From Corallococcus interemptor (lineage in GTDB: Bacteria; Myxococcota; Myxococcia; Myxococcales; Myxococcaceae), in the NCBI RefSeq assembly GCF_050270115.1, contig NZ_JBNNJP010000025.1: 64,000 nt of DNA; one strand, written 5' to 3'. Below the pieces are notes generated by a model, which did not search any database, had not been told where the DNA came from, and saw only the letters and a list, made by a program, of their open reading frames with translations. Numbering within the stretch: the first letter of the stretch is position 1; each line of letters starts with the position of its first letter. Shown here piece after piece: positions 1 to 8,171 of the stretch. Made by a program: the position numbers and the translations under genes.

Positions 1-245
1 TTCTCCAGCGTCAGCGACTCATCCAGCGGCACCGCGCGCGTCTTGCGTCCAGGCCGCTGCACCACCACGCCCCGCGCCGCCAGCCGCCGCAGCGCTTCAC
101 GGATGGTGCCCCGGCAGACGTCATAGTGACGCGCCAGCTTCGCTTCCGAGCCGAACTGCCCGCTCGGGTGAATCCGTCCCAGCGCGATGTCGCGCTCAAT
201 CTGTGCTTCCACGTACGCCACGAGCCCGCCGTGCCCCATCCCCAT
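1..245 (-). CDS. GntR-family transcriptional regulator, N-terminal winged-HTH part (partial; the gene runs off the left edge of the window)
   Basis: Minus-strand translation from the ATG near 245 gives MGMGHGGLVAYVEAQIERDIALGRIHPSGQFGSEAKLARHYDVCRGTIREALRRLAARGVVVQRPGRKTRAV, a typical GntR HTH (PSErELAxxxGVSRxTVReALrxL). It is absent from the ORF track because there is no stop inside the window. Confidence 0.6.
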   Translation of the reverse strand, partial: MGMGHGGLVAYVEAQIERDIALGRIHPSGQFGSEAKLARHYDVCRGTIREALRRLAARGVVVQRPGRKTRAVPLDESLTLE

Positions 246-327
246 TCCCCCTCCTCGTCCCAGCATCGCCATCCAACCACAGGGGTCTGACATGGACGCG
301 TGAGCCCCCTTTCCGGAGCCGGACTGA

Positions 328-790
328 AAAAACCTGTCCGACTGTCGGACAGGTTTTTCGGCAACCGCCCCCGGGCGGGCGTCTCTGTCCGAGGCCTGGT
401 CCTGGCGTCCTCGCCCGCACGACATCGCGCACCACCGCTGCACCCTGCGAGGCGCGCGTCCCTGGTTTCATGCGGCGCGAACCTGTCGGACAACCGGACA
501 GGTTTTGAGGCAACTCCTCCCGGGAGGGTGCCGCTGGCCGTCGTCCTGGCCTGGCATCCGTACGAGGCGAGCGTCCTTGGTTTCATGCGGCGTGCTCTTG
601 TCCGACTGCCGGACAGGTTTTGAGGGAACCCCACCGGTGCGGGCGCCTCTGCGCATGACCCGAGCCCTGGTGTCCGCTCGATTCGGCGAAACCTGCTTGT
701 TGGTCGGACAGGTTCTGATCCATCGCACCCGGTGCAATCCCATCGTTTTGATGAAAGCCTGTCCGACTGCCGGACGGTTTGGGATTTGCG
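328..790. repeat. Five copies of a ~27-31 bp palindromic repeat (consensus about aaCCTGTCCGACtGcCGGACAGGTTTT) in the GntR-proC intergenic region; copies 2 and 3 share a longer ~60 bp unit
   Basis: Copy 1 at about 328-358 is a perfect 15-bp-arm palindrome (AAAAACCTGTCCGAC-T-GTCGGACAGGTTTTT). The other copies are near 480-505, 594-620, 690-716 and 760-786. The short track ORFs in this region (203..508, 300..623, 468..743, 505..1011) are artefacts of reading through the repeats. Confidence 0.7.
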
Positions 791-877
791 CCCTCGGAAC
801 GTGGCGCCGCTTGGGTACCGTTGTGCTCCACCTGGCTTGGGCAACGGATGGTGGCCTCCTGAGGGTAGGATTCAGGG

Positions 878-1729
878 ATGGCGCTCCATCCCGTTCCCTC
901 CCCTGTCGCCCTGCTGGGTGGCGGCAAGATTGCCGAAGCCCTGATCCAGGGACTGCTGCGCTCCGGCCTCGTGCGTCCTTCGGACATTCGCGTCACCGTG
1001 CGCCGGTCTGAACGCGGAGAGGCGCTGCGCTCCCGGCACGGCGTGCACGTCCTCATGGACAACGCGCAGGCGGTGCGCGGCGCGGGAGTGGTCCTGCTGG
1101 CGGTGCGGCAGGCTCAACTGCGGGACCTGATGGCCGTCATCTCGCCGGCCCTGGCGCCCGGGCAGGCCGTGGTGTCGCTCTCCGCGGATGTCCGGTTTGC
1201 ACAATTGGAGGCGGCACTGCCTTCCTTTGTTTCAGTCATTCGCGCCATGCCCCACACGCCCGTGCGCGTGGGCGCGGGTGTGACGCCGCTGACCGCTGGA
1301 ACCCGGGTGACGGAGGCAGCGAAGCGCGCAGCGGAGTCTGTCTTCGCCGCGACGGGACAGCCGCTGTGGATGTCCGAAGAAGCCCTGACCGTGTGCACGG
1401 GCGTGTCCTGCACGGGCCCCGCGTATGTCTTTCGATTCGTCGAGGCCCTGGCCCAGGCCGCGGTGGCGCATGGAATGGACGCGGCGGAGGCGGCGGCGCT
1501 CGCCAAGGGCACGCTCATTGGCGCGGCGAAACTGCTGGCCGAACCTGATGCCGCGACGCCTCGCCTCATCGCGGAGATCGCCACCCCGGGCGGCATCACC
1601 GAAGCGGGGTTGCTGTCGATGGAAGCCGAAGGACTTCCCCGCGTCGTGGGCGAGGCGGTCTCCGTCGCCATCCAACGCACACGCGAGCGCGCGGACGCGA
1701 ACGCCGCCGCCTACAGCACGCCGAAGTGA
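878..1729 (+). CDS. proC: Pyrroline-5-carboxylate reductase
   Basis: N-terminal Rossmann segment LLGGGKIAEALIQGLLRSG and the conserved ProC C-terminal motif ATPGGITEAGL. ATG at 878, 283 aa. Confidence 0.85.
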   Translation: MALHPVPSPVALLGGGKIAEALIQGLLRSGLVRPSDIRVTVRRSERGEALRSRHGVHVLMDNAQAVRGAGVVLLAVRQAQLRDLMAVISPALAPGQAVVSLSADVRFAQLEAALPSFVSVIRAMPHTPVRVGAGVTPLTAGTRVTEAAKRAAESVFAATGQPLWMSEEALTVCTGVSCTGPAYVFRFVEALAQAAVAHGMDAAEAAALAKGTLIGAAKLLAEPDAATPRLIAEIATPGGITEAGLLSMEAEGLPRVVGEAVSVAIQRTRERADANAAAYSTPK

Positions 1730-2394
1730 CGCTTGAGCCCCCGCTGGCCTCCGGGCGTGACGATGAGGCCTCGGGAGTCGGGCTGACGCTCCACCCAGCC
1801 CAGTGAGAACACCCGGGCGGCGAGCGCCGCTCCCAGTGCTCCCGCGAGGTGATCGCGCCGCTCGCTCCAGTCCAGACACCGGTGGGCGAAGTGGCGCCGC
1901 TGTTCGCGCACGGACGCCAGGTCGATGCCGAAGTCCTGGCACCACGCCTCGCCGCTGGGGGTCAGCACGAACGCGCGTCGGCGCAGGGAGAGGTGGCCAG
2001 ACCGGAGGAGCGCGTCGGTGATGCCCATGCCCAGCCGGCCCGCCAGATGGTCGTAGCAATAGCGCGCGGCCCGCAGGGGCTCGGGGGCCGCTGACGCTCG
2101 GGGGCCCCGGACCGCCACGGTCATCAGCGCTTCCACCATCCGCGCCACGGTGGGCGTCGCGAGCCGGAACACCTTGTTGCGCCCCTGCCGGGTGGCGCGA
2201 ATCAGCCGCGCCTGCTCCAGACGCTGGAGGTGCGCGGTCGCCGTCGCGGGACTGACGCCCGTGCCGAACGCGAGCTCCTTGGCGACGAGCGCCCGCCCCT
2301 CCATGAGGAGCTCCAGCATCCGGATCCGCGTGGCGTCCCCCACGGCTCCAGCCAGCGTCGTGAGGTCCGGCCCTGCATTCATCGTTCGCTCCAT
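1711..2394 (-). CDS. ArsR/SmtB-family transcriptional regulator
   Basis: HTH segment ATRIRMLELLMEGRALVAKELAFGTGVSPATATAHLQRLEQARLIRATRQGRNKVFRLA. The track ORF (426 aa) extends upstream with Arg/Pro-rich non-protein-like sequence, so I place the start at the internal MERTMNAGPD. The gene is divergent from the P450 and its 3' end overlaps proC by 19 nt (convergent). Confidence 0.7.
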   Translation of the reverse strand: MERTMNAGPDLTTLAGAVGDATRIRMLELLMEGRALVAKELAFGTGVSPATATAHLQRLEQARLIRATRQGRNKVFRLATPTVARMVEALMTVAVRGPRASAAPEPLRAARYCYDHLAGRLGMGITDALLRSGHLSLRRRAFVLTPSGEAWCQDFGIDLASVREQRRHFAHRCLDWSERRDHLAGALGAALAARVFSLGWVERQPDSRGLIVTPGGQRGLKRHFGVL

Positions 2395-2419
2395 GACGAA
2401 CCATTTTCTAGCACACCTC

Positions 2420-2431
2420 GCCAGCTCTGGC
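2420..2431. promoter_or_regulatory. 12-bp palindrome GCCAGCTCTGGC in the ArsR/P450 divergent region (candidate operator)
   Basis: A perfect inverted repeat between the divergent starts at 2394 and 2458. Confidence 0.25.
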
Positions 2432-2457
2432 GGCAGAGTGCCCCGCGACGAGGACCG

Positions 2458-3576
2458 ATGACACCGCCCACCGACCCGTACCAGGCCGTCACCCACCCCG
2501 ACCCGTACCCGTACTACGCGCAGCTTCGCGCCCGGGGCGGACTGCACCGCATCCCCGGCTTCGGCCCCTGGATCGCGGCGGATGCGGCCACCGTTCGCGC
2601 CGTGCTTTCCAGCGAGCATGGCCGCGTCCGGCCCCGCGCGGAGCCGGTGCCTCCGCACCTGGTGGGCACCGCCGCCGGGGGGCTGTTTGGACGGCTGGTG
2701 CGGATGAACGACGGCGGCCCCTTCCCTGCCGTGAAGGAGACCCTGTCGCGCACGCTGACGGAGGCGCTGCGGGAGGTGCGGGTGGAGAGCCATCGCCAGG
2801 CGGCCCGGCTGTTCGCGAAGCCGTCGCTGTCTCGGCTGCCAGACGCGGCGCTCCAACTCCCCGTGCTCGTGCTGGGGTCTCTGCTGGGCTTCCCGGAAGA
2901 CACCCTGGAAGCGAGCGTGCAGGACGTGGAGGCCTATGTCCGCTCGGTCGCCGGCCCACCTGTGCGCAGCGAAGGCGCGGCGAGGCTGCACGCGCGCGTG
3001 GCGGACTGCTTCCGGTCAACCGCTCGGACTGCGTTCACGGCCGGGCTCATGGGAGGCCCTGGTCCAGAGGAGCTGCGCGTCCCCAACGCCGTGGGCCTGC
3101 TCACCCAGGCCTATGAAGCGACGGCCGGGCTCCTGGGAGCGACGCTGCGGGCCTTCGCTCGTGAGCCCTCGCTGCGGGAACAGGTCTCACGGGGCGAGTG
3201 CACGCTCGATAACGTGGTCCAGGAAGCGGCCCGGCACGACGCCCCGGTCCAGAACACGCGGCGCTTCACCCACTCGGCCGCGACGGTCGCGGGCGTCGAG
3301 TTGGAAGCAGGAGCGACCGTGGTCGTCGTGCTCGCCGCCGCGAACCGGGATCCCCTGGTGAATCCCCAGCCCGACGCCTTCCTGCCACGCCGTGCGGGCC
3401 GGCAGACCTTCACCTTCGGCCTGGGCGCGCATGCCTGTCCCGGGCCGCTGGTGGCGACGGCGATGGCGTCGGCGGCGGCGGCACGGGTGCTCGCGAGCGG
3501 CCTGGACCTGACGCCGCTGGCGGGCCCCGTCACCTGGCGTGCTTCCACCAACACCCGCGTCCTGGGAGGACCGTGA
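2458..3576 (+). CDS. Cytochrome P450
   Basis: Heme-thiolate loop FTFGLGAHACPG (FxxGxHxCxG) and a P450-like N-terminus PYPYYAQLRARGGLHRIPGFGPWIAAD. 372 aa from the ATG at 2458; the track ORF start at 2230 lies in the antisense of the ArsR gene. Confidence 0.85.
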   Translation: MTPPTDPYQAVTHPDPYPYYAQLRARGGLHRIPGFGPWIAADAATVRAVLSSEHGRVRPRAEPVPPHLVGTAAGGLFGRLVRMNDGGPFPAVKETLSRTLTEALREVRVESHRQAARLFAKPSLSRLPDAALQLPVLVLGSLLGFPEDTLEASVQDVEAYVRSVAGPPVRSEGAARLHARVADCFRSTARTAFTAGLMGGPGPEELRVPNAVGLLTQAYEATAGLLGATLRAFAREPSLREQVSRGECTLDNVVQEAARHDAPVQNTRRFTHSAATVAGVELEAGATVVVVLAAANRDPLVNPQPDAFLPRRAGRQTFTFGLGAHACPGPLVATAMASAAAARVLASGLDLTPLAGPVTWRASTNTRVLGGP

Positions 3577-3920
3577 TGATCGCTGTCATCTTCGAAGTCT
3601 GGGCACACGACGAGCACCGGCAGCGATACCTGGACCTCGCCGCGGAGCTTCGGCCCCTGCTGGCGGACATCGACGGGTTCATCTCCATCGAGCGGTTCCA
3701 GAGCCTCGGCACTCCCGGCAAGCTGCTGTCCCTGTCGTACTGGCGCGACGAGGCGGCGGTGGCCGAGTGGCGGCGCCTGGAGGCCCACCGGGACGCGCAG
3801 CGCGAAGGACGGGCGGGCGTGTTCAAGGACTACCGCCTGCGCGTGGCGCACGTGGTGAGGGATTACGGCATGGACGACCGGGCGGCCGTGCCCGCCGACA
3901 GCCGCACCGTGCACGGCTGA
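3573..3920 (+). CDS. Antibiotic-biosynthesis-monooxygenase (ABM/Dabb) family protein
   Basis: MIAVIFEVWAHDEHRQRYLDLAAELRPLLADIDGFISIERFQS...LSLSYWRDEAAVAEWR is a typical ABM ferredoxin-like fold signature. Its start (GTGATGA) overlaps the P450 stop, indicating an operon. Confidence 0.7.
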   Translation: MMIAVIFEVWAHDEHRQRYLDLAAELRPLLADIDGFISIERFQSLGTPGKLLSLSYWRDEAAVAEWRRLEAHRDAQREGRAGVFKDYRLRVAHVVRDYGMDDRAAVPADSRTVHG

Positions 3921-4003
3921 CGCGGTTGACGCACGTTGGCTGTCCTCCCGCCCGTCCCTCCCATGCGACCCATGACTCCCCTACCTTCCGTGGGGGGTGC
4001 ACG

Positions 4004-4402
4004 ATGAAGCGAGGCCATTGGAGAGGATGCTGGGGGCTGGCTGCCGCGCTGCTCGGGTTTCCGGCAGTGGCGCAGATGGAGGGTCCGCCCCAGGGCGCGC
4101 CGCAGTTCTCCTGCTTCGAGGCGGCGCGCGAGGGCAGCGGAGTGAGCGAAAGCGTCGCGGCCCAGCTCTGCCAGGGTGCCCGCTCCGACACCCCGGCGCG
4201 GTGCTTCCTCCGGGTCCAGGAGAATGGGTTCCTCTCGGAGCCTCAAGCGCTCCAGCTCTGCCAGTACGCGGAGCCCTCGGATGATCCCGCGTCGTGCTTC
4301 CTCAAGGCGCGGGCCTCCTCGTTCCTGGACGAGACACAGCTGCTCCAGCTCTGCCGCCCGCCCATCGCGGAGACGATGCAGCTGTGTCCCTATGGTCCTT
4401 GA
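4004..4402 (+). CDS. Small secreted Cys-rich protein with three tandem ~33-aa repeats (CFxxxxxxxFLSExQxLQLC)
   Basis: Signal peptide MKRGHWRGCWGLAAALLGFPAVAQ followed by three repeats (…SCFEAAREGSGVSESVAAQLCQ / RCFLRVQENGFLSEPQALQLCQ / SCFLKARASSFLDETQLLQLCR). The N-terminal 155 aa of the track ORF 3539..4402 are Arg/Pro-rich and non-coding-like. Confidence 0.5.
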   Translation: MKRGHWRGCWGLAAALLGFPAVAQMEGPPQGAPQFSCFEAAREGSGVSESVAAQLCQGARSDTPARCFLRVQENGFLSEPQALQLCQYAEPSDDPASCFLKARASSFLDETQLLQLCRPPIAETMQLCPYGP

Positions 4403-4420
4403 GGCCTCGGGCCCGTGGGC

Positions 4421-7105
4421 TCACCGGGTGCCGAGGAACGCCTTGATGCTCGGGGCCTGGAGCTTCTGGGACTCGATGCACAGCCGGATGGACTCCACGG
4501 CCCGGGCCAGCGCGCGCGGACCACCTTCAATCCTGTCCACGCGGGGCGTGAGGAACGTCTCCACCTGCGCCAGGTTGAGGTCGTCGCAGAGGCTCCCCGT
4601 CTGGCCAATCAGCCGGCCCAGCTCATCCGAACGCAGCCGCTGGGTCAGCGCGTCGAAGTGCGTCTGGTAGAAGCTCCATGCAAGGGATTGCGACTCCGGC
4701 GACATCAACGCCATCCGGAGGATGACCTGCGAGTCGCGCACGTCGAAGTCCGGCGACACCACGAGCCCCAGCGCCCGCCACAGCAGGTCCGGGTTCCGGA
4801 AATACGCCAGGGACGTCAGCAGCCGGGAACGCTCGGTGCGGTCCTGCTCCTTCTTCGCGGCCGCCAGCAGCGCGTCGAACAGCGCCGCGTCACCGTGCGT
4901 GGCCGCTCTGGGCAGCGCGGCGCTGAACGCCTCCGGATCCACCGACCTCCGGTCCGCCAGCCATGCGCGCACCAGGGGCAGCGCCTCCTTCGCCAGCCGG
5001 GGATCATCCCCCAGACCGCCGGCCAGCCTGAGAAAGAGCGAGCGCGAGTCCTTCACGGAGTCGTCCTCGCCCGGCTTCGGCACCCAGCCCATGGCCCGAG
5101 CACGCGCCGAGTAGAGCGACGCCACCCACGTACGGAAGCGCTGGCGCTCCTCGGGCGTGAGCTGATCCAGCCGCACGAGCTCCAGCAGGGACGCACCGCT
5201 CTGCACCACGAGCCGGTTCGGCGACTTCGCGGAGGCGGGCACCGCCTTCAGCGCCTCGCCCAGCGGCAGGTCGCCCCGGGTCACCGCCGCGTTCACGTCC
5301 GCCCAGAGCGCCACCTGCTCCGCGGGCGTGAAGGCGGCGGCCGGGGTCGCGAGCAGCTTCGTCAGCTGCTCGCGGGTGTAGCCGGCGCGGTAGTAACCCG
5401 CGCCGCCCGCGTTGAGCAGCACCCACGCCGGGCACTGCTTCGTGGGCAGCGCGACCTCCGCGGAAGGCCCCTGCAGCATCGAGCACACCCGCGACGACTG
5501 CGTGCCCGTGCCCACGCGAAGACACACGGGCACCTGCCACTCCTGCCGCGCGTCCGCCTTGGACCCCACGGGCAGGTAACGCTCCTGCGACAGCTTCACG
5601 GACGGAGCGCCGCCCGCCGGGCACGACAGCTGCGCGGTGATCCGAGGCGCCCCAGTGCGCTGGATGAACCCGCCAAAGGATTGCGCTACCTCCGGCCCCG
5701 CTGCCTGGCCCAGGTCCGCGAGGAAGTCCTCCGTGGTCGCGACCTTCCACGCGTGCTTGCGGACATAGCCCCGGAGGATGTCGCGGAAGCGCTCCGGCCC
5801 CAGCCACGACTCGTACATGGCGATGACGGACGAGCCCTTGTCATACGTCGTCCCGTTGTCGAACGAGCCCACGATGTCGTCATTGCTCTCCACCGGCTTG
5901 CGCACGGGCAGCGCCGACTCCAGTTCATCCGATGCCAGCGCGGAGCGGGTCGCGGACATGGCGCGCTCCTGCTGGAAGTCCCAGGACGGCTCCAGCCGGT
6001 TCACCGTCTGCCGGTCCAACCAGGCGGTGAAGGACTCGTTCAGCCAGATGTCGTTCCACCACGAGCAGGTGACCACGTCGCCGAACCAGTAGTGCCCCAG
6101 CTCATGGTTGGCGATGACCGCGTAGGCCTTGCGGCGGGCCAGCGTCTCCTCACCGGGCGGGATGAGCGTGAGTGGCTGGCCGAGCGCGACGATGCCCGGG
6201 TGCTCCATGGTGCCCCAGTAGCGGGGCACCACCGCCACATCCAGCTTCTCGTACGGGTACGGCTGGTCGAAGAAGTCCTCCAGCCCCTTCACGATGCGCG
6301 GCGTGATGCTCGCGGCGTAGCGCGTCTCCGCGCCGCGTCCCTTGGGGACGATGAAGCGCAGCGGCACGTTCGTGCGGCCCACGGTGCCGGCCTCCACCAC
6401 GTCGAACGGCCCCACCATGAAGGCCACGAGGTAGCTGGGCATGGGCTTGCTCTCAGCGAAGGTGACGCGCTCCAGGCCGTCCGCCAGCGGCTCGCGGGAC
6501 ACGACGGGATGGTTGGCCAGCGCCACGTGTCCGGCCTTCACGGTGAAGCGCAGGCGCCACGGCACCTTGAAGGTCGGCTCGTCGAAGCACGGGAAGGCGC
6601 GGCGCGCGTCGATGGGCTCGAAGAAGGTGTAGAGGTAGGGCTCGCCGCCCTCCGCGACGCCGTAGAGGCCCTGGCTGCGCTCGCGGTCCACCTTGCCGGT
6701 GAAGTCCAGGACGAGCTGGGCCTTGCCCACGGGCAGCTCCTCCGGGAGCAGCAATCCCAGACGCCCTTCCGTCGCCGTGACAGGCTTCGCGTCGAACGTG
6801 CGGCCATTCACGGTGACGCGCGCCCGCGTCACGTCCAGGTCCTGCGCGTGCAGCCACACCTGGCGCACCGGCTCGCGGACCTCCACGTCGATGGTGACAC
6901 TGCCCGGGTACGTGTCCTCTGAAGGCACGAGCTTCAGGTCCAGCGCGTAGTGCACGGGCCGCACGGTGTCCGGCAGCCGCAGCGCGGGAGGCAGCGCCTC
7001 CGGCCACGACACGGCGGGCGGCGCGGAGGCAGGCGGTGCGGCCTCTGGCGCGTGGGCACAGCGGACGGTCAACACCACCAGGACAAGGAGTGGGAGCAGT
7101 CGCAT
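4421..7105 (-). CDS. Secreted M1-family aminopeptidase N-like zinc metallopeptidase
   Basis: Signal peptide MRLLPLLVLVVLTVRCAHA, zinc site HELGHYWFGD (HExxH), GTMEHPG (GAMEN-like exopeptidase motif), and a C-terminal ERAP1-like helical domain. 894 aa. Confidence 0.9.
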   Translation of the reverse strand: MRLLPLLVLVVLTVRCAHAPEAAPPASAPPAVSWPEALPPALRLPDTVRPVHYALDLKLVPSEDTYPGSVTIDVEVREPVRQVWLHAQDLDVTRARVTVNGRTFDAKPVTATEGRLGLLLPEELPVGKAQLVLDFTGKVDRERSQGLYGVAEGGEPYLYTFFEPIDARRAFPCFDEPTFKVPWRLRFTVKAGHVALANHPVVSREPLADGLERVTFAESKPMPSYLVAFMVGPFDVVEAGTVGRTNVPLRFIVPKGRGAETRYAASITPRIVKGLEDFFDQPYPYEKLDVAVVPRYWGTMEHPGIVALGQPLTLIPPGEETLARRKAYAVIANHELGHYWFGDVVTCSWWNDIWLNESFTAWLDRQTVNRLEPSWDFQQERAMSATRSALASDELESALPVRKPVESNDDIVGSFDNGTTYDKGSSVIAMYESWLGPERFRDILRGYVRKHAWKVATTEDFLADLGQAAGPEVAQSFGGFIQRTGAPRITAQLSCPAGGAPSVKLSQERYLPVGSKADARQEWQVPVCLRVGTGTQSSRVCSMLQGPSAEVALPTKQCPAWVLLNAGGAGYYRAGYTREQLTKLLATPAAAFTPAEQVALWADVNAAVTRGDLPLGEALKAVPASAKSPNRLVVQSGASLLELVRLDQLTPEERQRFRTWVASLYSARARAMGWVPKPGEDDSVKDSRSLFLRLAGGLGDDPRLAKEALPLVRAWLADRRSVDPEAFSAALPRAATHGDAALFDALLAAAKKEQDRTERSRLLTSLAYFRNPDLLWRALGLVVSPDFDVRDSQVILRMALMSPESQSLAWSFYQTHFDALTQRLRSDELGRLIGQTGSLCDDLNLAQVETFLTPRVDRIEGGPRALARAVESIRLCIESQKLQAPSIKAFLGTR

Positions 7106-7280: not shown

Positions 7281-8171
7281 ATGTCTCGTCGCAGCAGCGG
7301 CCTCCCCTCCCTTTTCGTCTCCCTGCTCTTCGTCGTGGGCTTCGCGTCTACCGCCAACGCTGACACCTACCAGACCTATGTGACGCCCAAGGTCAATGGC
7401 TATCAGATTGGAACCTATCTCCCCAACCAGCCCGCCGGGAACTTCAGCAGTGCCGCCGACACGGCCCGCCGCTTCTGTCAGGACCAGGGCCACAGCGGGG
7501 CGCAGAGCTTCACCACCGCCCTGCGCAGCGTCGCGTATACGTACATCGTTGGCACCAATGGCGTGGGCCCCTGGAACACCACCGGCAACGCCAACGTGAC
7601 GATGATCGAGACCGTCACCTGCTTCAACTCCAGCTCCGACACCACGTACACGGCGCCCACGGTCAACAGCTACCAGGTGGGCACCGTTCAGCCCAGTCAG
7701 CCGGCCGGCAACTACAGCACGCCCGCCGACACCGCGCGCCGCTTCTGCCAGGACCGGGGCCACACGGGAGCCCGTAGCTTCACCTCGGCCATCCGGGGCT
7801 CCGCGTACACGTACATCGTCGGGGCGAACGGCGTCGGCCCCTGGAACACCACGGGCAACTCCAACGTGACCATGCTGGAGACCATCACCTGCTTCGACGG
7901 AACGGTCCTCACGTACACGACGCCCATCGTCAACGGCTACCAGGTGGGCACCATCCAGCCCAATTACCCCACGGGCAACTACAGCACCCCGGTGGACACC
8001 GCCCGCCGTTTCTGCCGCGATCTCAACCACGTGGACGTGGGCAGCTTCACCACCGCCATCCGCGGCTCTGCTTACACGTACATCGTTGGCGCCAATGGCG
8101 TGGGCAACTGGAACACCACCGGCAACTCCAACGTGACGATGCTCGAGACCATCACCTGCATCACCCAGTAG
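7281..8171 (+). CDS. Secreted protein built of three tandem ~86-aa repeats, unknown function
   Basis: Signal peptide MSRRSSGLPSLFVSLLFVVGFASTANA. The motif PxVNGYQ(I/V)GTxxPxQPAGNxSxxADTARRFCQDxGHxGAxSFTxAxRxxAYTYIVGxNGVGPWNTTGNxNVTM(I/L)ET(V/I)TCF occurs three times, plus a partial fourth. Shine-Dalgarno GAGGAAAAAC lies upstream. Confidence 0.65.
   Translation: MSRRSSGLPSLFVSLLFVVGFASTANADTYQTYVTPKVNGYQIGTYLPNQPAGNFSSAADTARRFCQDQGHSGAQSFTTALRSVAYTYIVGTNGVGPWNTTGNANVTMIETVTCFNSSSDTTYTAPTVNSYQVGTVQPSQPAGNYSTPADTARRFCQDRGHTGARSFTSAIRGSAYTYIVGANGVGPWNTTGNSNVTMLETITCFDGTVLTYTTPIVNGYQVGTIQPNYPTGNYSTPVDTARRFCRDLNHVDVGSFTTAIRGSAYTYIVGANGVGNWNTTGNSNVTMLETITCITQ
7368..8165 (+). repeat. 3.1 x ~258-bp in-frame tandem repeats inside CDS 7281..8171
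   Basis: DNA and protein periodicity is visible in the translation; each unit has two conserved Cys. Confidence 0.6.

Follow-up and report, generated by a model that had tools for sequence, protein, structure and literature searches.

REP-like repeats are common, but what is known of their spread and role comes mainly from those with an attached RAYT transposase. The REP, BIME and REPIN elements of Enterobacteria and Pseudomonas are short, imperfect palindromes that are extragenic and genus-specific, and that occur in many dispersed copies and in arrays. They are enriched at the 3′ ends of genes, form terminator-like hairpins and flank a specific protein-coding gene. Among palindromic operators, the site of FadR has the consensus TGGT-N3-ACCA, and residues R45, R49 and G66 of this regulator are described as indispensable for DNA binding (PMC2602784). 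The FadR site at fadL reads AGCTGGTCCGACCTATACT (PMC4259882). Two other systems offer points of comparison, namely VNTRs such as the mycobacterial MIRU, which are intergenic tandem units whose copy number varies between close relatives, and integron attC sites with their cassettes, in which an imperfect palindrome of ~60-140 bp brackets one gene.

Here, we describe a palindrome, P (core AAAACCTGTCCGAC-W-GTCGGACAGGTTTT), from a 64,000-nucleotide stretch of Corallococcus interemptor DNA (contig NZ_JBNNJP010000025.1), referred to below as the window. P shares with REPs all the characteristics mentioned above, its stem-loop being 21-31 bp long. Unlike REPs, the gene that is amplified along with P encodes a FadR-type transcription factor and not a RAYT, the tyrosine transposase of the IS200/IS605 type; no association with such a gene (IS200/IS605-like TnpA) was found in 8-kb blocks around the repeats. 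In addition, P arrays are made of direct tandem units of 36-150 bp rather than of alternating inverted REPs, and the P core resembles a transcription-factor box. In comparison with a MITE, the complete element of ~70 bp is one long imperfect palindrome, and no parent IS was seen among the clustered proteins of its loci.

Like operators of the FadR/PdhR/LldR type, P has a palindromic GT-N3-AC-type core and lies upstream of a gene with the FadR fold that keeps R45, R49 and G66. By contrast with the 17-bp FadR sites, the putative site in P covers 21-31 bp with two overlapping boxes. A genome has dozens of these sites or more, mostly outside promoters and in tandem arrays. The variation of P copy number between close relatives (5 vs 3 at one locus, 1 vs 8 at another orthologous locus) recalls MIRU, although P units are built on a conserved palindrome that is also found singly throughout the genome and that is retained even as the linkers diverge. 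Finally, the presence or absence of a gene beside a lone palindrome is reminiscent of integron cassettes. The likeness goes no further than that: no integrase turned up, distinct cassettes are not lined up in an array, and P also forms tandem arrays devoid of genes. On the strength of the sequence comparisons described below, we lean towards P being a REP-like repeat that doubles as the putative operator of a FadR-type regulator family.

A palindrome array between a GntR gene and proC

The array occupies a divergent intergenic region of 632 bp, between the start of a GntR regulator gene (245) and that of proC (878), in agreement with the ~630 bp and the two gene identities proposed in the first-pass annotation (Table 1). 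The part of the GntR protein that is encoded in the window is 97.5% identical across 81 aa to a paralog at another locus, L115. The exact-protein look-ups of the window ProC and of protein P0119 found no record, and a promoter scan of positions 1-1200 found no sigma-70-like promoter.

Table 1. Coordinates of the features at the GntR-proC locus in the window.
Feature	Positions	Strand	Remarks
GntR regulator gene, FadR subfamily, first 81 codons	3-245	-	truncated by window start; PF00392 (GntR), 48.2 bits (cutoff 27)
Leader motif CCATGTCAGACCCCTGTGGTTGGATGG, minus-strand reading	269-295	-	between proximal palindrome and GntR start; extra GTCAGAC box
Copy 1, AAAAACCTGTCCGAC-T-GTCGGACAGGTTTTT, perfect 31-bp palindrome, core 333-353	328-358		87 bp upstream of GntR start; family-conserved site
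Short GC-rich hairpin after copy 1	365-382		outer arm of the element; sequence reading
Unit 2, shared 5′ flank GCGTCCCTGGTTTCATGCGGCG	456-477	+	repeat alignment
Copy 2, degenerate palindrome, core 482-502 (CCTGTCGGACAACCGGACAGG)	479-506		hairpin z -2.5
Unit 2, GC-rich hairpin CCTCCCGGGAGG	516-527		sequence reading
Unit 3, shared 5′ flank GCGTCCTTGGTTTCATGCGGCG	571-592	+	80% identity over 94 nt
Copy 3, degenerate palindrome, core 597-617 (CTTGTCCGACTGCCGGACAGG)	594-621		hairpin z -0.8
Unit 3, GC-rich hairpin CCCCACCGGTGCGGG	629-643		sequence reading; kept in the nearest related locus (L121) after its copy 1
Copy 4, left arm lost (CCTGCTTGTTGGTCGGACAGG), core 692-712	689-715		3 mismatches, minus strand only; hairpin z 0
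Copy 5, core 758-778 (CCTGTCCGACTGCCGGACGGT)	754-780		100 bp upstream of proC
proC, pyrroline-5-carboxylate reductase	878-1729	+	TIGR00112, 201 bits (cutoff 196.75); neighbour outside the repeated module

All five palindromes reported earlier were found between positions 328 and 780. Copy 1 alone is perfect, its arms (328-342 and 344-358) being 100% complementary. Copies 2, 3 and 5 carry 1-3 mismatches each. The 21-mer CCTGTCCGACNNNCGGACAGG, with up to 3 mismatches allowed, has 9 strand matches in the window, all of them within 333-778, whereas shuffled sequences gave a mean of 0.30 and none of 100 shuffles reached 9. Similarly, the window has 5 occurrences of CGGACAGGTT, all of them in the array, against 0.15 expected. 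Copy 1 is also the only one that folds far better than its shuffles (-20.4 and -21.5 kcal/mol, z -5.4 and -6.8), the z values of copies 2-5 ranging from 0 to -2.5.

Two of the earlier measurements need to be corrected. The start-to-start distances are 149, 115, 95 and 66 bp instead of about 160, 118, 87 and 70 bp, and the repeat unit is longer than ~30 bp. A unit of 94 nt lies at 294-387, 443-536 and 558-651 with 61-80% identity; in it, a 5′ flank precedes the palindrome, which is followed by TTTTGAGGCAAC and by another short hairpin rich in GC. The additional flank that had been noted for copies 2 and 3 is part of it. The same long unit recurs in the arrays upstream of the paralogs at L081, L028, L021, L115 and L008. 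Tandem Repeats Finder reported nothing for positions 200-950, because the units are too diverged and irregular.

Dispersal of the palindrome in Corallococcus

P was found in at least 120 stretches of 8 kb from ~9 genomes, almost all of Corallococcus, in a scan of reference genomes. On the chromosome of C. coralloides KYC2213, blocks with P lie all the way round, at positions from 16 kb to 9.5 Mb. The 934 kb of loci contain 282 copies, 142 of them with a perfect core, while the reversed-sequence control contains 0. GC-rich arms like those beside copy 1 flank the dispersed single copies as well, and together with P they make up the imperfect palindrome of ~70 bp. Together, the five palindromes of the window thus amount to a tandem array, local and in part decayed, of a repeat that is dispersed through the genus. 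Consequently, the idea of an operator array private to this locus, which by its own terms was to fall if copies abounded elsewhere, is refuted by that abundance, and the REP/MITE-like family that had been offered as the alternative is supported.

Most arrays are intergenic (93 of the 101 that could be classified with a crude GC3-based gene caller). Some of the arrays that appear to be inside genes fall in GntR paralogs, within tails that are weakly coding. P copies favour the 3′ ends of genes, and convergent gaps make up 37% of the gaps with P as opposed to 17% of those without it (p = 6e-5). Arrays are often tandem, with 2-12 units, a regular period of ~70 bp in many cases and linkers that are related to one another. 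Within arrays, the P columns are 0.80-0.94 identical and the linkers 0.44-0.70, a difference that is partly an ascertainment effect, as the units were defined by their matches to P.

When the 734 predicted proteins from the 8-kb blocks of these loci were clustered all against all, no recurrent transposase or RAYT was seen near P, and GntR was the sole locus-specific recurrent family. The 21-mer has 0 matches in viral contigs; therefore, a phage origin is unsupported. A literature search on the palindrome sequence, on REP/MITE elements of Corallococcus or other myxobacteria and on REPIN/RAYT found nothing relevant.

The FadR-type regulators associated with P

The suspicion that P is linked to the GntR gene proved well founded, as the link is conserved and P stands at a fixed upstream distance in every family member sampled. 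A paralog of the window GntR is present at 17 of 120 P loci (at least 120 being listed). The nearest P of each of the 17 has 0-1 mismatch, and it ends 86-88 or 114-118 bp from the start codon in 16 of them and 196 bp from it at L087; the window gene likewise carries a near-perfect upstream P. The leader motif (Table 1) is found in all the upstream regions of Corallococcus paralogs, even at 53-63% protein identity (L036, L040). The best 120 of 199 matches in a search for the family all belong to Corallococcus, and a single C. exercitus chromosome has at least ~12 protein clusters of it. The segment of homology between paralogs, of ~840 bp, includes P, and within Corallococcus the association could reflect the simple co-duplication of this segment. 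The genes on the other side differ: the paralogs adjoin unrelated genes, and the proC side is not common to their loci.

The full-length orthologue of the window protein (P0023, from L121) has 347 aa. Its AF2 model (pLDDT 80) shows a winged HTH followed by 7 helices, and its top Foldseek matches are E. coli FadR structures, 1hw1 (E 1.5e-6), which is a FadR-DNA complex, and 1e2x (TMt 0.66). Pfam FCD gave no sequence match in the regulator; the predicted architecture is that of the FadR subfamily, with an N-terminal PF00392 winged HTH and an all-helical C-terminal domain of the FCD type. All of 148 family members have R45, T47 and R49, and at least 90% have G66, so the DNA-contact residues of FadR are kept, while the R35-equivalent residue varies (A, Q, R, E). 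The long Corallococcus forms have the downstream P inside the gene tail, where its in-frame translation gives LSDCRTG in 34 of 178 proteins. Part of the annotated length of these regulators (320-420 aa) is probably a read-through tail of weak coding character.

In Archangium, the orthologues share a conserved egtB-egtD-GntR synteny. Their palindromes, AACTGGTCCGA-N3-TCGGACCAGTT or CTTGTCCAAC-W-GTTGGACAAG, have the same GC-rich arms and lie upstream of the gene and often also downstream, ~100 bp after its stop codon. The changes with respect to the Corallococcus palindrome are identical in both half-sites, the upstream and downstream copies of one locus are the same variant, and the FadR box of E. 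coli, TGGTCCGACCA, is found within one of the variants. Thus, the association of P with the regulator holds at 45-50% protein identity, with locus-specific variants and with the remaining intergenic DNA diverged. No long upstream palindrome was found in Hyalangium or in family members from metagenomes (41-52% identity), and a scan for further members in metagenomes gave ~11 true relatives, none with such a palindrome. Residue 35 possibly covaries with the type of site, in few and non-independent lineages. Residue 44 of the recognition helix (C or A) was rejected as the determinant, as it does not track site type.

Operator site or hairpin

The likeness of the core to GntR-type half-sites, pointed out in the first-pass annotation, can be made more precise, as the core matches FadR-type boxes. 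GTCCGAC is common to P and the fadL site, and P contains CTGTCCGACAG, a GT-N3-AC-type core, whose position upstream of the regulator gene is conserved. By contrast, P is not restricted to the promoters of a regulon, most copies being in convergent gaps, at 3′ ends or in gene-free arrays.

P might instead be a purely structural or selfish REP-like repeat, a terminator-like hairpin that spreads by recombination or slippage and adjoins the GntR paralogs only through the duplicated segment, with no regulator binding it. This is a serious possibility, although clearly a less probable one. It accords well with the dispersal of P and its preference for 3′ ends, with the A-tract, stem of 10-15 bp and T-tract that can be read on both strands, with the inclusion of P in the paralog homology unit, with the fast turnover of copy number and with a wider family that lacks long palindromes. 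Against it stand the persistence of the association in Archangium described above, the FadR-type box in the core, and the adjacent FadR-type gene, in which the contact residues of FadR are retained. A RAYT or transposase near the copies was also not found in the 8-kb blocks. Selection for a hairpin predicts that stem positions covary, and they do not. Across P copies there are 160 one-sided changes vs 7 double changes, and the centres of the GTC-N-GAC boxes are free, with 41 C/C, 23 G/G and only 1 compensated G/C combination. Judged from these substitutions, what is conserved in P is the sequence and not the pairing. Changes that occur symmetrically in the two arms are explained equally well by the maintenance of a hairpin and by the binding of a dimer.

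Copy 1 has a hairpin with T5/T6 runs on both strands, yet it lies between two gene starts. A simple terminator scan of window positions 1-1200 did not flag it, which we attribute to the T-run being base-paired with the A-run in the stem. The perfect copies may act as bidirectional terminators or insulators.

If P is indeed both a repeat and an operator, a regulator dimer would bind the GTC-N-GAC / TGT-N3-ACA boxes of copy 1 and thereby regulate its own gene. Copies 2-4 would be by-products of unequal recombination between palindromes, now decaying, and a P located after a stop codon could act, through its A-tract, hairpin and T-tract, as a bidirectional terminator as well. Against this explanation, ~100 of the 120 listed P loci have no GntR gene nearby, and the preference for convergent gaps is unexpected in a regulon, whereas REP elements and terminators typically show it.

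It is also conceivable, though unlikely, that the transcription factor family and its palindromic site form a selfish or semi-selfish pair whose members were amplified jointly. P-GntR-P cassettes would then move or be homogenised by recombination between dispersed palindromes, leaving single palindromes and arrays behind, and 10-15 paralogs would bind dozens to hundreds of sites across the genome, possibly for insulation, termination or nucleoid organisation rather than in a classical regulon. Such a pair would be comparable to REP-RAYT, except that its protein is a DNA-binding protein of the FadR type without catalytic activity.

Origin of the array and its relation to proC

In C. carmarthensis (L122/L123), there is no GntR gene at this locus and a single palindrome (5883-5903) precedes proC (6001). 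This palindrome matches copy 5 and lies at the same distance from proC, as does the one at 5880-5900 of L121, the nearest relative. L121 has 3 copies where the window has 5: two of copies 2-4 are missing, copy 2 being absent and copy 4 present. The GntR gene and copies 1-4 are therefore an indel beside copy 5, the older, single P that precedes proC.

Such an indel could be expected if P-GntR-P were a mobile cassette whose flanking palindromes serve as recombination sites, as in integron attC or solo LTRs, with excision leaving a single P and re-integration occurring at another P. The indel abuts a single P, the Archangium gene is bracketed by P on both sides, and the long Corallococcus forms have a downstream P within their tail. 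Moreover, paralogs within one genome are 88-96% identical, while the orthologues at L088 and L028 share only 83.6% despite flanks that are 89-92% identical; gene conversion alone could yield this pattern. We regard a mobile cassette as improbable, since no recombinase is associated with P (clustered proteins of at least 120 loci), no palindrome was found at the left indel junction in L121, and the long gene-free arrays would be left unexplained.

The main proposal of the first-pass annotation, that the five sites are a dedicated operator through which the adjacent GntR protein controls proC, is very improbable. In its favour, a GT-N-AC-like motif is repeated in a divergent promoter region, with copy 5 lying 100 bp upstream of proC. 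Nevertheless, the motif abounds at other loci, copies 2-4 have degenerated and two of the three are missing in the closest relative, other paralogs adjoin unrelated genes, and the proC of C. carmarthensis keeps its palindrome at the same distance where no GntR gene exists. Control of proC through the array is thus unsupported; any effect of P on proC would be exerted via copy 5 and would be common to many other P sites.

Transcription of the array into structured small RNAs, or a CRISPR-like array, is the least credible explanation, as the plus-strand hairpin and U-run units, the minus-strand fold of the whole region (z -3.1) and the regular ~70-bp period of many arrays elsewhere are outweighed by Rfam families that all stay below threshold, pairs without covariation, the absence of a sigma-70-like promoter in 1-1200, 'spacers' that are related to one another and the absence of a recurrent cas-like family near arrays (clustered proteins of at least 120 loci). 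Rfam gave no match for the whole window at gathering thresholds, and only spurious weak ones for 200-950 at E up to 1 (mir-981, 22.8 bits vs a gathering threshold of 51, and malK-III). A CRISPR array proper was rejected on the irregular spacing and the related 'spacers' of the large arrays; the latter also make the earlier argument against CRISPR correct.

Implications

P represents a repeat family that is consistently tied to an expanded group of FadR-type regulators instead of a RAYT, with matching variants in a second genus. If the regulators bind P, they would provide a clear example of the joint amplification of a transcription factor and its site, as well as a model for the seeding of binding sites across a 10-Mb genome. 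In addition, because their copy number differs between close relatives, P arrays could be useful as strain markers.

The palindrome family in the window

Five related palindromes had been reported by the first-pass annotation in the gap between the GntR-type gene and proC, and all five were located there, including copy 1 as a perfect 31-bp palindrome (see the table for coordinates). At up to 3 mismatches, the 21-mer gives 9 strand matches, all within the gap, where 0.30 are expected; this number was reached in 0 of 100 shuffles, and the rest of the 64-kb window has no further copy of the palindrome. Successive copies are spaced 149, 115, 95 and 66 bp apart, start to start. The repeat unit extends beyond the palindrome: a flank, GCGTCCYTGGTTTCATGCGGCG, precedes it, and TTTTGAGGCAAC and a short GC-rich hairpin follow. 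Only copy 1 forms a strong hairpin (-20.4 and -21.5 kcal/mol, with z of -5.4 and -6.8); folding z is between 0 and -2.5 for the degenerate copies 2-5. The palindromes have no Rfam family, and no published description of them was found in a literature search.

Features of the window and of stretches fetched from other genomes (L handles)
Feature	Stretch	Coordinates	Strand	Remarks
Divergent intergenic gap	window	246-877		632 bp, between GntR-type gene and proC
GntR-type gene, first 81 codons	window	start codon at 245	minus	PF00392, 48.2 bits
proC	window	878-1729		TIGR00112, 201 bits (cutoff 196.75)
Palindrome cores, copies 1-5	window	333-353, 482-502, 597-617, 692-712, 758-778
Copy 1, whole palindrome	window	328-358
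Repeat unit, 94 nt	window	294-387, 443-536, 558-651
Convergent overlap of proC and ArsR-like reading frames	window	1711-1729
HTH_5/ArsR-like gene	window	~1711-2394	minus
P450	window	2458-3576
ABM	window	3573-3920
Tandem repeat, 267-bp period	window	7422-8168		2.8 copies, 78% matches; inside plus-strand ORF (~7281-8171)
C-terminal tail of GntR paralog	L115	6478-7050
Palindrome-free extra sequence	L124	~4290-5290		between GntR gene and proC, within array region
Sigma-54-like motif	L126	~4962-4978		sequence reading
Sigma-54-like motif	L130	~2962-2978		sequence reading
Sigma-54-like motif	L131	~2941-2957		sequence reading
Sigma-54-like motif	L087	~2040-2056		sequence reading

Dispersal and arrays

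The wider genome search proposed earlier showed the palindrome to be abundant elsewhere. In one genome per species, the pattern YTGTCSGACNNNCGGACAGGTTTT is present in at least 120 stretches; nearly all of those listed come from Corallococcus interemptor, coralloides, exercitus, carmarthensis, praedator and sp. RDP092CA, the others being one deltaproteobacterial and one Archangium MAG. Blocks with the palindrome core (P) are spread from 16 kb to 9.5 Mb along the complete C. coralloides KYC2213 chromosome. Counted as CCTGTCCGAC-N-GTCGGACAGG with up to 4 mismatches, 934 kb of fetched loci contain 282 copies (142 perfect) and the reversed-sequence controls none. These copies are grouped into 126 arrays, namely 78 of a single copy, 34 of 2-4 and 14 of 5-12, with favoured periods of ~36-41, 57-60, 66-76 and 111-150 bp. 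Linkers inside an array resemble each other, which indicates tandem duplication, not the spacers of a CRISPR array. Lone copies form the middle of a larger imperfect palindrome, ~70 bp in length, CCTCCCGGGCGCGCTTTTCAAAAA-P-TTTTTGAAAAGCGCGCCCGGGAGG. Ten 8-kb blocks in which no GntR gene was found (L020, L054, L076, L084, L103, L026, L011, L060, L063 and L075) contain large arrays, with 6-12 palindromes repeated regularly every ~36-41, 57-60 or 69-72 bp; in these arrays, the A-run and T-run are kept in the end copies and lost from internal ones.

A crude gene caller based on GC3 places 93 of 101 arrays between genes. Convergent gaps are over-represented (37% of P-bearing versus 17% of P-free gaps; Fisher p = 6e-5), and between minus-strand tandem genes, also as called from GC3, P lies closer to the stop of the upstream gene. 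Among the genes close to P copies, neither a transposase nor a RAYT recurred, and viral contigs gave 0 matches. The dispersal, intergenic siting and 3′-end bias match a REP-like element shaped like a bidirectional terminator. The family is REP-like in being dispersed and intergenic but, unlike REP elements, it is coupled to a transcription-factor family instead of a transposase.

As for what is conserved, stem changes among 278 copies are one-sided in 160 cases versus double in 7. Apart from three variable positions (S, W and S), conservation exceeds 96% across the inner 15 bp, TGTCSGAC-W-GTCSGACA, and the centres of the GTC-N-GAC boxes vary freely (C/G 202, C/C 41, G/G 23, compensated G/C 1). 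In 12 large arrays, identity is 0.80-0.94 in palindrome columns versus 0.44-0.70 in linkers, a difference subject to ascertainment, as the units were defined by palindrome matches. Sequence recognition or recent common descent accounts for this pattern better than selection for pairing.

Association with FadR-type regulators

The GntR-family protein belongs to the FadR subfamily of regulators. P0023, the full-length orthologue (347 aa) in stretch L121, is modelled by AF2 with a winged HTH and seven helices (pLDDT 80). In Foldseek, this model is most like the E. coli FadR-DNA complex 1hw1 (E 1.5e-6) and FadR 1e2x (TMt 0.66), and the nearest PDB sequence is the PdhR N-domain. No family member deviates at R45, T47 or R49, and at least 90% keep G66; FadR R35, R45, R49 and G66 have been described as indispensable for TGGT-N3-ACCA binding (PMC2602784). 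The GTCCGAC of the palindrome is also present in the fadL site AGCTGGTCCGACCTATACT (PMC4259882).

Many loci per single genome match the leftmost part of the window (1 to ~300-540) at 74-96% nucleotide identity, a segment that runs from the 5′ part of the GntR gene through the leader to copy 1. Homologues of the full-length 426-aa paralog of L115 were found by tblastn in 17 of 120 loci. The palindrome closest to the gene carries 0-1 mismatch at all 17 loci and in the window. It ends 86-88 or 114-118 bp ahead of the GntR start codon, except in L087 (50% identical), where it ends 196 bp before it. The leader CCATGTCAGACCCCTGTGGTTGGATGG between palindrome and start is conserved in Corallococcus paralogs and absent from L087. 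The proposed tie between the palindromes and the adjacent GntR is real in that P lies upstream of every sampled paralog. The evidence does not support a circuit dedicated to control of proC by GntR. We infer that the regulator binds the palindrome, possibly with some regulatory effect.

The family has 199 database matches at E <=1e-10, the best 120 of which are all from Corallococcus; among these 120, the C. exercitus SDU142 chromosome alone contributes ~12 distinct clusters. Paralogous loci share only ~840-965 bp, comprising the GC arm, palindrome, leader and first ~235 codons. The C. interemptor paralogs (L115, L008, L088, L049, L046, L081) are 88-96% identical over ~840 bp, closer than the orthologous pair L088/L028 (83.6%, with flanks at 89-92%), which points to concerted evolution (gene conversion) or recent spread as the probable cause. 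At this orthologous locus, one species has 1 palindrome and the other 8.

The GntR paralogs (L115, L116, L036, L008 and others) carry C-terminal tails of 100-250 aa, which are acidic, internally repetitive and predicted to be disordered (residues 240-347 in P0023). Their coding signal is weak (GC3 0.66-0.78 versus 0.83-0.88 in the core), and in 34 of 178 family proteins they include the palindrome translated in frame as LSDCRTG. Rather than being functional domains, the tails may come from read-through into repeat arrays downstream of the gene. Since they often contain the palindrome, the GntR gene is bracketed by palindromes in Corallococcus too. A GRW..RLWRF-like amphipathic motif closes 13 of 178 family proteins, and locus comparison shows the GntR reading frame running, at its 3′ terminus, antisense into the end of DUF481.

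Archangium and more distant homologues

Archangium homologues are 45-50% identical to P0023, mostly 240-260 aa long and without the long tail. Their position is conserved (egtB-egtD-GntR ... bactofilin-parB-parA): in L126, L127, L129, L130 and L131 the gene is 3′ of egtB/egtD-like genes (FGE-sulfatase/DinB_2 and Methyltransf_33) and 1-3 kb from bactofilin-parB-parA. Each has a palindrome variant upstream, and often a second, of the same variant, ~100 bp past the stop. The GC-rich outer arms are those of the Corallococcus element, and each variant has identical changes in both half-sites relative to the Corallococcus palindrome. The variant is AACTGGTCCGA-N3-TCGGACCAGTT in A. gephyra CP102578, A. 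violaceum and A. lansingense, the last including an exact FadR box, TGGTCCGACCA, and CTTGTCCAAC-W-GTTGGACAAG in A. gephyra DSM 2261; the Archangium MAG has a degenerate form and the deltaproteobacterial MAG the Corallococcus type. No long palindrome was found at metagenomic family members (41-52% identity) or upstream of the Hyalangium member.

Arg occupies the FadR R35 position in all three proteins beside CTGG-type sites; in those beside (C/T)TG-type sites the residue there is Q, E or A. R35 is found in 42 of 185 family members and in 0 of 17 paralogs beside T-type palindromes. That residue 35 tracks palindrome type is suggestive only, as the lineages are few and non-independent.

A sigma-54-like -24/-12 motif, TGGCCCACCTGCTGCAA, with GG and GC spaced by 12 bp, may be read 25-45 bp upstream of Archangium-type GntR start codons; none was seen in Corallococcus leaders.

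History of the proC locus

ProC orthologues are restricted to Corallococcus and close relatives. In C. carmarthensis (L122/L123), proC directly follows DUF481 at 165 bp, with no GntR gene and 1 palindrome ending 98 bp ahead of proC. Copy 5 of the window lies 100 bp ahead of proC, and this matching distance identifies it as the older single copy. The GntR gene and copies 1-4 are inside an indel. Corallococcus sp. AB049A (L121; ProC 98% identical) has the order DUF481-GntR-proC with 3 palindromes; its flanks are ~98% identical to the window and the arrays differ, the window having copies 2 and 3 as two further units (264 bp) and L121 having ~85 bp absent from the window. In Corallococcus sp. EGB (L124), the GntR gene is followed by ~1 kb of extra sequence, which could be a degraded insertion, with 1 of 8 palindromes ahead of it and 7 behind at a ~50-bp period.

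The array would be a side effect of unequal recombination around a REP-like palindrome, and this palindrome is probably the hallmark site of a FadR-type regulator family that was amplified with it. Copy 1 would be the conserved functional copy, most likely an autoregulatory operator, and its strong bidirectional hairpin could insulate the two divergent promoters. Copies 2-4 would be decaying duplicates.

Genes within 1-4400 of the window have a third-position GC of 0.77-0.83, compared with 0.88-0.97 in later genes, and their order is kept in L121-L124.
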